This document shows positions 8,626-11,793 of a stretch of DNA of 11,793 nucleotides, piece after piece. The translations under genes were made by a program, and so were the position numbers. A model generated the notes under the pieces. That model did no database searches and was not told the origin of the DNA. It saw nothing but the letters and a program-made list of their open reading frames with translations. The number at the start of each line of letters is the position of its first letter. The first letter of the stretch is position 1. This DNA is from Candidatus Odinarchaeota archaeon (lineage in GTDB: Archaea; Asgardarchaeota; Odinarchaeia; Odinarchaeales; Odinarchaeaceae). Location of the stretch: assembly GCA_038826135.1 (NCBI GenBank), contig JAWBON010000035.1, positions 1 to 11,793 on the forward strand, read 5' to 3'.

Positions 8626-8916
8626 ATGAGTGAGCTGATATCTAAAAATGTTGTCCTCCATATGGCTTGGTTATCCAGGATTTTTTTAACAGAGGAGCAG
8701 GTTGAAGCGATGACTAAACAGTTAAATGAGATTTTAGCATATTTTAGAAAACTTGACATTGTAGATACCAGTAATGTGCCCTTAGAATTATACGTGACGC
8801 CTCTCAAAAACGTTGTTAGAGATGACGTGGTGGGAGAGTCCTTAGACCCGGAGGACGCGTTGAAAAACGCGCCTAATAGAGAAGGTAAATTCTTTAAAGC
8901 ACCTAAAATGATGTGA
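8626..8916 (+). CDS. gatC: Asp-tRNA(Asn)/Glu-tRNA(Gln) amidotransferase subunit C (96 aa)
   Basis: Motifs [48 protein letters not shown]; SD AGGTG; directly upstream of gatA and gatB. Confidence 0.93.
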
Positions 8917-10429
8917 TTGAAATGAAGCGCTTATATGAGAAGCCTTTATACGAGTTAATGGACCTTATAAGAAGCCGAGCGATATCGGTTGAAGAGTTAA
9001 ACTATCAATTATTAGAGAATATTAAACACGTTGAACCTCAAATCCATGCTTTTATAAACCTGTTTGAAGGGGAAGCTCTATCTTTAAGCAGGTCTGTTGA
9101 CAGACATTTACTCGAGAAAGAGAATTCACCTGCTTTAGCAGGTGTCAACGTCGCTGTGAAGGATAACATCTCATATAAGGGGCATCCGACAACATGCGGC
9201 TCTAAGATTTTAGAATCTTATATTCCACCATATAACGCCACAGTTGTGAATAAAATTCTCTCCCAGAAAGCTATTATAATCGGTAAAACAAACATGGATG
9301 AGTTTGCAATGGGCTCTTCAACAGAGCACAGTCATTTCGGACCTACTAAAAATCCCTTCGACACATCTAGGGTTCCAGGCGGCTCATCCGGTGGTAGTGC
9401 CGCGGCTGTTGCAGCAAACGAGGCTGTCATCGCTCTGGGCAGCGACACAGGCGGTATCTATATACTTTAATGTATATAGCCGTAGGTGTGCGGCAGCCTG
9501 CATGTTTCTGCGGCGTAGTAGGGTTTAAACCATCATACGGTCTTGTAAGCCGTTACGGTCTAATAGCGTACGCTTGTAGTTTAGATCAGATAGGGCCTAT
9601 CGGTAAGAATGTCAGAGACGTAGCCATACTATTCGACTTCATAAAAGGGTATGATAACTATGATTCTACAAGTTTAAACCATGATATTGGAAGCGCTTCA
9701 CTATTCTTAGACAGTGATCTTAAAAATCTGCGTTTAGGTGTTGTTAAAGAGTTTTTCGGGGAGGGAACTGATAAGCGTGTTGAATCAGCTGTATGGGAGG
9801 CTGTTAATAGATTAGAATCTATAGGTTGCATGTACGATGTAATATCTTTACCGTACGTGGAACACGCTATCCCCGCTTACTATATTATCGCCATGTCTGA
9901 GGCTAGTTCAAATCTTGCAAGGTACGATGGAGTAAGATACGGTTACAGGGCGGATATAGACTCGGATTGGAACGATGTCTTTTCAAAAACCAGGCAGGAT
10001 GGATTCGGCTTAGAGGTTAAACGGCGAATTATGCTCGGAACATTTGCATTAACGGCAGGATACTTTGACCAATATTATTTAAAGGCTCTACAGGTTAGGA
10101 AACTAATTCAAGACGACTTTAAGCGGGCGTTCAAAAAATACGATATACTTGTAGGGCCAACATCCCCTATCCTACCGTTTAAACTGGGAGAAAAAATCTC
10201 AGACCCATTAGAAATGTATAGAATAGACGTGGACACCGTGCCTGTCAATCTCGCCGGGCTGCCTGCTATATCAATCCCCTGCGGGTTAAGTAACGGTCTG
10301 CCTATAGGAGTGCAGCTTATAGCTGATTTCCTAGAGGACTTGAAACTGTTAAATTTATCCTATAAACTAGAATGCGAGCTGAATCTTAAACTAAAACCTA
10401 AGCATATTATCGGTGGTGAATTTGACTGA
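8913..10429 (+). CDS. gatA: Amidotransferase subunit A, intron-containing: join(8913..9456, 9486..10429), 495 aa (492 aa if started at ATG 8922)
   Basis: The two track ORFs are the N- and C-terminal parts of one amidase-signature protein ([38 protein letters not shown] | [26 protein letters not shown]). Removing 9457-9485 gives GAC ACA GGC GGT A/GT GTG CGG CAG CCT = DTGGSVRQP, and 544+944 = 1488 nt = 496 codons. Confidence 0.92.
9457..9485 (+). other. Predicted 29-nt bulge-helix-bulge-type (EndA-spliced) intron in gatA mRNA: TCTATATACTTTAATGTATATAGCCGTAG
   Basis: Central 4-bp helix GCGG (9451-54) / CCGT (9480-83). 3-nt bulges TA^T (9455-57) and AG^G (9484-86). Perfect 8-bp intron stem CTATATAC (9458-65) / GTATATAG (9472-79) with a 6-nt loop. 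Exon-exon helix CACA (9446-49) / TGTG (9487-90) with G9450 unpaired. Canonical cuts after the second bulge nucleotide coincide with the junction required by protein conservation. Confidence 0.88.
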
Positions 10430-11793
10430 AGGTGAACTTATTATAGGTCTAGAATGCCATGTTCAGCTAACAGCGTTGAAAACCAAACTGTTCTGTTCCT
10501 GTAATGCAGACTATAGAAGTCTTGAACCTAACACTGTGCTCTGCCCTACATGTTTAGGCCTACCGGGGGCGCTGCCGGTGGTTAATAAGGAGGCTATCAC
10601 TTTAGGTTTAAAAGTGGCTAAAGTTTTAAACTGTCAGCTATCTGATAGAATCGTATTTTTCCGTAAGAATTATTATTATCCGGATATGCCTAAAAACTTT
10701 CAAATCAGTCAATATGATAGAGTCGGCGGAATCCCCCTGGGCAGAGACGGTTATATAATGGTAAAAACTGATTCAAGTGAAAGAAAAATCAGAATAAGAA
10801 GAATACACTTAGAGGAGGACCCTGCTAGAATAGTATACGTCGGCTCCATATCCACTTCACCTTATAGTTTAATCGATTATAATCGGGCTGGTGTAGCGTT
10901 ATTAGAGATAGTTACCGAGCCTGATCTCACCTCGGATGAAGAGGCTCATATATTTTTGAAGAAGCTTAGATCAATAGTGGAGCATTTAGGTGTCTCGGAT
11001 GGTAGTCAGCAGGGTACTATGCGCTGCGATGTGAATATCTCGCTTCGAGGTGGAAAAAGAGTTGAGATAAAGAACGTGTCCTCTTTCAAAGAGGTTAAAA
11101 AAGCTATTAAATACGAGTTCTTAAGACAAAAACAGCTTATTAAACGTGGAAGTGTTGTCGAACAGGAGACCCGTCACTGGGATGAGGTTAGGAAAATCAC
11201 AGTCTCCATGAGAAGCAAAGAAACCGAGCAAGACTATAGATATTTTCCCGAGCCTGATATTGTTCCTATTTACATAACAGGTGAATGGTTAAGTAAAGCT
11301 TTAACAGATTTACCTGAACTTCCGGATGCGCGTAAAATCCGTTTATCAACACAATATGGGCTGCCCTCCCATGACGCGGAGGTCCTCACCAACAGTAAGG
11401 CGCTAGCCGACTTCTTCGAGGAGGCTGCCCGTCTTTATAAAAATTATAAGAATATAAGTAATTGGATTATGGGTGATCTGCTAAGGAATTTAAACGAACT
11501 AGATATAGAGATTTCAGAGTCGAAGATAACCCCTGATAAACTAGTCTTAATGTTAAAGTTGATTGATGAAGGCGTGATAAGCGGGAAGCTGGGTAAGATT
11601 ATTATAAGTGAAATAGTTCAAACCGGTAAGGATCCTAGAATCCTAGTTGAGGAGAAAAAACTTAAAAAAATCTCCAGTGAAGAAACTCTTAATTTATTTA
11701 TAAACCAGGTGTTTCAAGAATATCCTGGCGCTGTTAAAGACGCTTTAAAAGATGAAAGAGCGGTTCACTATTTGATAGGTCAGGTTATGAAGA
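10422..11793 (+). CDS. gatB: Amidotransferase subunit B, 3'-truncated by the window edge
   Basis: Absent from the ORF track because there is no stop in the window. Hand translation from TTG 10422 (SD GGTGGTGA 10412-19) is open to the end: IIGLECHVQL, TKLFC, CLGLPGALP, RKNYYYPDMPKNFQISQY, IHLEEDP, DYNRAGVALLEIVTEPD, MRCDVNIS, VEIKN, QETRHWD, RSKE..DYRYFPEPD, IGQVMK. Confidence 0.96.
   Translation, partial: MTEGELIIGLECHVQLTALKTKLFCSCNADYRSLEPNTVLCPTCLGLPGALPVVNKEAITLGLKVAKVLNCQLSDRIVFFRKNYYYPDMPKNFQISQYDRVGGIPLGRDGYIMVKTDSSERKIRIRRIHLEEDPARIVYVGSISTSPYSLIDYNRAGVALLEIVTEPDLTSDEEAHIFLKKLRSIVEHLGVSDGSQQGTMRCDVNISLRGGKRVEIKNVSSFKEVKKAIKYEFLRQKQLIKRGSVVEQETRHWDEVRKITVSMRSKETEQDYRYFPEPDIVPIYITGEWLSKALTDLPELPDARKIRLSTQYGLPSHDAEVLTNSKALADFFEEAARLYKNYKNISNWIMGDLLRNLNELDIEISESKITPDKLVLMLKLIDEGVISGKLGKIIISEIVQTGKDPRILVEEKKLKKISSEETLNLFINQVFQEYPGAVKDALKDERAVHYLIGQVMK

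Follow-up and report, generated by a model that had tools for sequence, protein, structure and literature searches.

A predicted bulge–helix–bulge intron splits the catalytic serine codon of gatA in Odinarchaeia

Can an archaeon make a functional GatA from a gene whose frame is broken inside one of its most conserved motifs, and if so, by which means? The question is raised by the 11,793-nt stretch of Odinarchaeia DNA analysed here (hereafter the window), which comes from an assembly of 1.26 Mb in 105 contigs (93% complete, 38% G+C). The genes gatC, gatA, and gatB lie on its plus strand with overlapping gene ends and form a gatCAB operon, in which the start of gatB overlaps the end of gatA and gatB itself runs beyond the window edge (Table 1). 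An earlier account made from the letters of the window (the sequence-only reading) had described a stop and a frame change in gatA, caused by 29 extra nucleotides within the motif GSDTGGS(I/V)RQP, and positions 9440–9500 are as it described them: a 29-nt insert at 9457–9485 interrupts the frame within GSDTGG-S-VRQP. The upstream part, starting at GTG 8913 or ATG 8922, reads through into the insert and ends in IYIL at a TAA (9468–9470), and the downstream part lies in a different frame and continues as VRQPACF... to its stop at 10427–10429.

Table 1. Coordinates of the gatCAB locus (positions in the window), of the splicing enzymes, and of candidate introns in other coding genes
Feature	Position	Strand	Evidence
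gatC	8626..8916	+	TIGR00135, 76.4 bits vs cut-off 47.1
gatA exon 1	8913..9456	+	Pfam Amidase profile 5-153; S. aureus GatA residues 8-177
Relaxed bulge–helix–bulge motif	9446..9490	+	RNA fold and nine orthologues
Predicted gatA intron, 29 nt	9457..9485	+	Sole 29-nt excision regenerating Ser; stem conserved
gatA exon 2	9486..10429	+	Pfam Amidase profile 155-445; S. aureus GatA residues 179-478
gatB	10413..11792	+	NF004012/TIGR00133, 589.5 and 543.1 bits
Catalytic EndA subunit, part on C48	C48:1-420	-	
Catalytic EndA subunit, part on C72	C72:2-247	+	
RtcB	C16:2586-5357	+	
Predicted kae1 intron, 26 nt	G000:C27:11638-11663	-	Exon halves match adjacent Pfam profile positions
Predicted gcvPA intron, 30 nt	G000:C60:2456-2485	-	Exon halves match adjacent Pfam profile positions
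Radical-SAM gene insert, 29 nt, inside CxxxCxxC	G000:C33:9419-9447	-	BHB-type
citG-like gene insert, 25 nt	G000:C79:1196-1220	+	Sensible ORF after BHB-rule excision
UPF0147 gene insert, 27 nt	G000:C5:10077-10103	-	Sensible ORF after BHB-rule excision

The position of the junction can be read from the motif. Removing 9457–9485 joins A9456, the first base of a Ser codon, to the GT that opens exon 2 and gives GSDTGGSVRQP, whereas the neighbouring 29-nt excisions give Gly (9455–9483 and 9456–9484) or Ile (9458–9486 and 9459–9487); the single Ser-forming excision named in the sequence-only reading came out unchanged on recomputation. Joined in this way, gatA has an ORF of 495 aa with zero internal stops. 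Exon 1 stops at position 153 of the Pfam Amidase profile and exon 2 resumes at 155, and in the alignment with S. aureus GatA (2DF4_A), exon 1 extends to residue 177 and exon 2 continues from 179, with precisely one residue, the junction codon, absent between the exons. Only after the excision does the locus combine what characterises GatA, a contiguous Amidase domain and a Ser nucleophile in the gatCAB context. Amidase-signature enzymes have a Ser-cisSer-Lys triad, and the junction Ser aligns with Ser178, the nucleophile of the S. aureus enzyme. As judged from the alignments, the putative intron falls within the codon for the catalytic nucleophile of GatA.

We folded the 57-nt RNA spanning 9440–9496 and obtained a structure with an MFE of -20.4 kcal/mol (z = -3.3), with 2 of 200 shuffled sequences as stable. 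It contains a 4-bp central helix GCGG/CCGU (9451–9454/9480–9483) with one G–U pair, a perfect 8-bp intron stem CUAUAUAC/GUAUAUAG (9458–9465/9472–9479) closed by a 6-nt loop (9466–9471), and a 4-bp exon helix (9446–9449/9487–9490). The 5' bulge UAU (9455–9457), flanked by the central helix and the 8-bp stem, is unpaired, and it is 3 nt long in all nine sequences that we compared (see below). From 5' to 3', the predicted intron thereby opens with one bulge base, continues through the 8-bp stem with its loop and the CCGU strand of the central helix, and closes with two bulge bases. On the 3' side, AGG (9484–9486) lies opposite the unpaired G9450 and forms a 3x1 internal loop in the register of the sequence-only reading, or a 2x2 loop in the MFE register. 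The 3' cleavage site is relaxed and has no clean canonical 3-nt bulge. Folding reproduced the two 4-bp helices, the 3-nt 5' bulge, and the perfect 8-bp stem proposed earlier, and the label of a relaxed bulge–helix–loop given to the 3' site is a fair one. A group I or group II self-splicing intron was considered and rejected, as the inserts measure 28–30 nt against a ribozyme core of hundreds of nucleotides and a search of the whole window against Rfam gave no family match.

The insert is present at the same gatA site and in the same phase in nine distinct Odinarchaeia sequences, and is 28, 29, or 30 nt long. Four of the nine are genomes of the genus, the source among them; three are metagenome lineages, whose proteins are 96, 76, and 68% identical, and the remaining two are sister-family genomes at approximately 57% identity. 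The 30-nt form keeps the frame, yet contains TAA. In all nine, cutting each unpaired triplet between its second and third bases yields A/GY (AGU or AGC, both Ser; the slash marks the cut) and restores the frame. The intron stem is 98.6% paired across the nine sequences and five of its eight pairs show compensatory changes on both sides, one of them running through U–A, U–G, and C–G across the orthologues; as the nine sequences represent few independent lineages, these counts of covariation, and that of the central helix, exceed the number of underlying events. Pairing in the central helix is 91.7%, with one compensatory pair; L048 and the sister family have a G.A mismatch there. Pairing in the exon helix is only 69%, and the sister family lacks this helix in this register. 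As a control, we slid the 3' partners by 1–3 columns, and the pairing of the stem fell to 12–55%. RNAalifold also proposed an exon–exon complement, CAGGC/GCCUG (9449–9453/9497–9501), which shows one A–U to U–A switch in the nine sequences. We dropped this helix: although 97.8% paired across the nine, it consists of almost invariant coding sequence, is disrupted in L048, and would have to compete with the central helix.

Outside the order, the gene reads straight through. We surveyed 400 Asgard genomes and found a gatA match in 157 of them, the break being confined to Odinarchaeia; in the rest of the Asgard gatA genes, about 150, the frame runs unbroken for about 490–520 aa, and in these intron-less alleles GGC or GGT is directly followed by TCN or AGT at the junction. 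The two short gatA frames from Asgard genomes outside Odinarchaeia that we inspected (G302 and G273) were rejected as introns, since both end at contig ends and are truncations. The relatives agree with what the sequence-only reading had expected of them, sharing the codon phase and the stem covariation where the insert is present and being contiguous where it is absent. The four genomes of the genus do not differ at all in the five codons immediately 5' of the intron, which make up the exon share of the motif, in comparison with identity at only 34% of comparable codons gene-wide, although the sample is small. The recurrence of the insert also bears on the possibility of an assembly or sequencing artefact. 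Nothing speaks for an artefact except the short length of the insert, and we find it scarcely credible given that the insert is seen in independent assemblies (NCBI MAGs, ENA, JGI, and Logan), some of which are single-contig genomes.

The sister family has a second interruption of gatA, located approximately 150 nt upstream of the Ser-codon intron and splitting the Met codon AU/G of MDEFA-M-GSS. It is 29 nt long in G004 and 32 nt in G005 and in Logan contigs (L051–L053), has a 6-bp exon helix, a 9–10-bp stem, and cuts of the same 2/1 phase, and is missing from the source's genus and from L048 and L050. By its sequence and geometry, this appears to be another BHB intron, described here for the first time.

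All nine Ser-codon introns contain a stop of the exon-1 frame (UAA or UAG) in or beside the hairpin loop, and translation of unspliced RNA terminates within six codons. The loop stop may be selected to abort the translation of unspliced RNA, or it may just reflect A+T-rich loops. One alternative to an intron is a split gene, in which GatA is made without RNA splicing as a 185-aa N part ending in IYIL and a 319-aa C part from ATG 9470. An ATG of the exon-2 frame is indeed found inside the insert across the genus (at 9470 in the window and as TATGG in relatives), and public gene callers give two ORFs of 182 and 319 aa. We nevertheless consider a split gene very unlikely. Without splicing, the nucleophile codon reads Gly in G000, G003, L046, and G005 and Cys in L050, which costs five of the nine their Ser, and in the sister family the approximately 20 exon-2-frame codons upstream of the junction (...LYVAKRAAKS) include neither ATG nor GTG nor TTG. 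Moreover, the compensatory changes in the hairpin and the constant phase of the cuts are left unexplained. A programmed translational bypass, in which the ribosome would skip the hairpin in the manner of phage T4 gene 60, seems to us just as improbable. The combination of a stable hairpin and a stop a few codons past a Gly codon does resemble the take-off site of gene 60, but the sole matching landing codon in the window, GGU at 9485–9487, would produce GSDTGG-VRQP and lose the catalytic Ser. In addition, G001 and the sister family offer no landing codon that matches, and the constant 2/1 phase within the bulges suits cleavage by EndA, not hopping.

Whether the gene needs to be functional can be judged from the rest of the genome. 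Searches of the 93%-complete genome found gatA as its only Amidase-family gene (Pfam) and no AsnRS reaching the cut-off (profile search). Its one AspRS, of class IIb, scores 554.6 bits as aspartate--tRNA(Asn) ligase, that is, as the non-discriminating type; GatE is present, and GlnRS had no match at the cut-off. On the established archaeal scheme, this set of enzymes leaves GatCAB as the sole way of making Asn-tRNA(Asn). The pairwise dN/dS of the spliced gatA is 0.05–0.10 within the genus, at dS values of 0.9–2.3 that are saturated, and we found no other stops or frameshifts in the gene in six genomes. On these sequence comparisons, gatA is under strong purifying selection. The sequence-only reading had listed relaxed selection on gatA, an AsnRS, and another intact gatA as findings that would speak against an intron, and we observed none of the three in this genome. 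The same results make us give even less credence to a conserved pseudogene, a decaying gatA that is inactive throughout the order, than to a split gene or a bypass. A standard annotation would indeed report a frameshifted gene, but the low dN/dS, the otherwise undamaged frame, the lack of a substitute enzyme, the intact and overlapping gatC and gatB, and the retention of the insert across two families with structure-preserving changes all argue against decay.

An intron of the BHB type calls for the enzymes of tRNA splicing, and the genome encodes two EndA paralogues. In the catalytic subunit the Tyr/His/Lys pattern is present, and its alignment with the corresponding subunit of A. pernix EndA (3P1Z_B) has no gaps, the Crenarchaea-specific loop included; the gene is divided by an assembly gap, the two parts overlapping at their ends by approximately 40 codons (Table 1). 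The second paralogue, on C45, lacks the catalytic His. Asgard archaea have been assigned an (alpha-beta)2 EndA with an L1 loop, which is linked to the cleavage of relaxed motifs (Kaneta et al., PMC5829648), and the sequences of the EndA pair fit this type. The sequence-only reading had asked for the EndA architecture of this genome: it is the two-paralogue type, with the loop tied to relaxed-motif cleavage in the literature (PMC5829648) in the catalytic subunit. RtcB is present as a single frame of 995 aa. Its Pfam match comes in two parts (profile positions 1–50 and 49–426) that lie about 1.4 kb apart, the size of an intein insertion.

The exact restoration of the motif, the covariation, the purifying selection, and the presence of the enzymes support the genuine spliced mRNA intron put forward in the sequence-only reading. 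We consider it highly probable that 9457–9485 is a BHB (tRNA-type) intron of the gatA pre-mRNA spliced by EndA and RtcB. Its excision from the mRNA is almost certain on this evidence, and sequence, fold, conservation, and enzymes indicate that cleavage and ligation most likely take place at 9456/9457 and 9485/9486. In the transcript, the exon GCGG would pair with the intron CCGU and stack on the 8-bp intron hairpin. The heteromeric EndA would cut at the two sites, each time past the second base of the unpaired triplet, and ligation of the exons by RtcB would restore the reading frame and form the AGU codon for the catalytic serine. The predicted junction of the ligated mRNA is GGCGGUA/GUGUGCGG, and that of the circularised 29-nt intron is CCGUAG/UCUAUAUAC. 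Because the stop codon lies in the hairpin loop, unspliced transcripts would yield just the 185-aa fragment.

The sequence-only reading had suspected that the lineage hides more such micro-introns, to be found by a genome-wide scan for the same geometry. Our scan, a vectorised search for BHB geometry combined with ORF merging, gave 1769 ORF-merging hits, 52 of them with compact hairpins. With decoys based on shifted cut rules we obtained 96–119 hits in comparison with 98 with the true rule, that is, no excess. As the decoy counts equal those of the true rule, geometry and ORF merging are unable to count introns, and homology alone separates true cases from false ones. Likewise, because the geometry alone is ordinary in this genome, the significance of the gatA case rests on the exact restoration of the motif and on its conservation.

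Five further candidates from the scan were tested against Pfam. Homology identifies the predicted introns of kae1 and gcvPA (Table 1). The radical-SAM candidate is only plausible, its exon 2 having a sub-threshold Radical_SAM match and its exon 1 none. Excision also gives sensible frames for two genes outside these five, the citG-like and UPF0147 genes, the latter overlooked by the strict scan due to one mismatch in its stem. The candidates C8:7735-7759 and C23:14012-14037 were rejected, as Pfam shows ordinary gene boundaries at both places. The suspicion of further micro-introns is borne out by the second gatA intron of the sister family and by the inserts in the kae1, gcvPA, radical-SAM, citG-like, and UPF0147 genes.

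When four of the coding-gene introns were searched against the genome for signs of mobility (blastn-short), only chance-level matches were obtained; the introns share no sequence among themselves or with other parts of the genome. The remaining coding-gene introns of the genome also keep an exon-1-frame stop in or near the loop. The intron sites fall in the most conserved motifs, namely the catalytic Ser codon and MDEFAMGSS of GatA, the CxxxCxxC motif, GPGLGPCL of Kae1, and YTPYQ of GcvP. Such siting, like that of inteins, may reflect survival at places where imprecise loss is lethal, or the BHB motif may need invariant exon bases. We regard it as a real possibility, if one falling a little short of probable, that the gatA intron belongs to a set spread over the genome (at least 6 in 1.26 Mb), dependent on EndA and RtcB and placed in catalytic-motif codons of essential genes, whose mRNA splicing would be obligatory and possibly rate-setting and whose loop stops would abort unspliced translation.

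The closest known counterpart is the cbf5 pre-mRNA intron (Watanabe 2002; Yoshinari 2006; Yokobori 2009, the last being PMC2738675). We checked cbf5 in the source genome and found it uninterrupted. In Crenarchaeota (Desulfurococcales and Sulfolobales), the cbf5 intron has a mostly unconventional or relaxed BHB with predicted cuts between bulge bases 2 and 3, contains no ORF, and shows a lineage-restricted distribution among hosts with a hetero-oligomeric EndA (PMC2738675). The gatA insert resembles it in all these respects, being short, ORF-less, and lineage-restricted, located within a protein-coding sequence, with a relaxed BHB, predicted cuts between the second and third bulge bases, and a host with a hetero-oligomeric EndA. 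It differs in the gene and in the phylum (Asgard), and in splitting the codon of a catalytic nucleophile; furthermore, cDNA and in vitro cleavage have demonstrated the splicing of cbf5, while that of gatA is predicted from sequence.

In motif, size range, and presumed enzymes, the gatA intron is also similar to the non-canonical and multiple tRNA introns of Thermoproteales and Asgard archaea (PMC5829648; PMC11291895; bioRxiv 10.64898/2026.10.13.758758). The source genome resembles those tRNA-intron-rich archaea: of the 31 tRNA genes that ARAGORN detected in it, 23 contain an intron, and tRNAs for Asn, Gln, Lys, Met, and Cys are all missing from the set. Their absence would fit genes so heavily interrupted that standard finders overlook them. 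The spliced product is similar to the GatA of bacteria and other archaea (for instance S. aureus 2DF4 and A. aeolicus 3H0L) in being full-length with 495 aa and having GSDTGGS(V/I)RQP; unlike in those, the coding sequence here is interrupted, in the sister family twice.

The papers on Asgard introns that we found concern tRNA genes, and our full-text literature search found no report of a gatA intron, nor of a BHB intron in a coding gene, in Odinarchaeia or other Asgard archaea. As far as we found, published BHB introns in archaeal coding sequences that are spliced by proteins are limited to crenarchaeal cbf5, in line with the earlier view that such introns centre on cbf5 and that one in gatA was unreported. 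The gatA intron appears to be a further case alongside cbf5, in an Asgard lineage that apparently uses mRNA splicing repeatedly. If so, an essential Asgard translation gene can specify its catalytic serine only with the help of the tRNA-splicing machinery. Standard annotation calls such genes fragments or pseudogenes and distorts the metabolic reconstructions of Odinarchaeia: the public gatA calls are the two ORFs mentioned above in L048, or 138 and 301 aa with the middle exon uncalled in L051 of the sister family, and the fragments in the public protein collection have no product name. More broadly, a prokaryote closely related to eukaryotes would splice mRNA routinely, which raises the question of how transcription, splicing, and translation are ordered in a cell without a nucleus.
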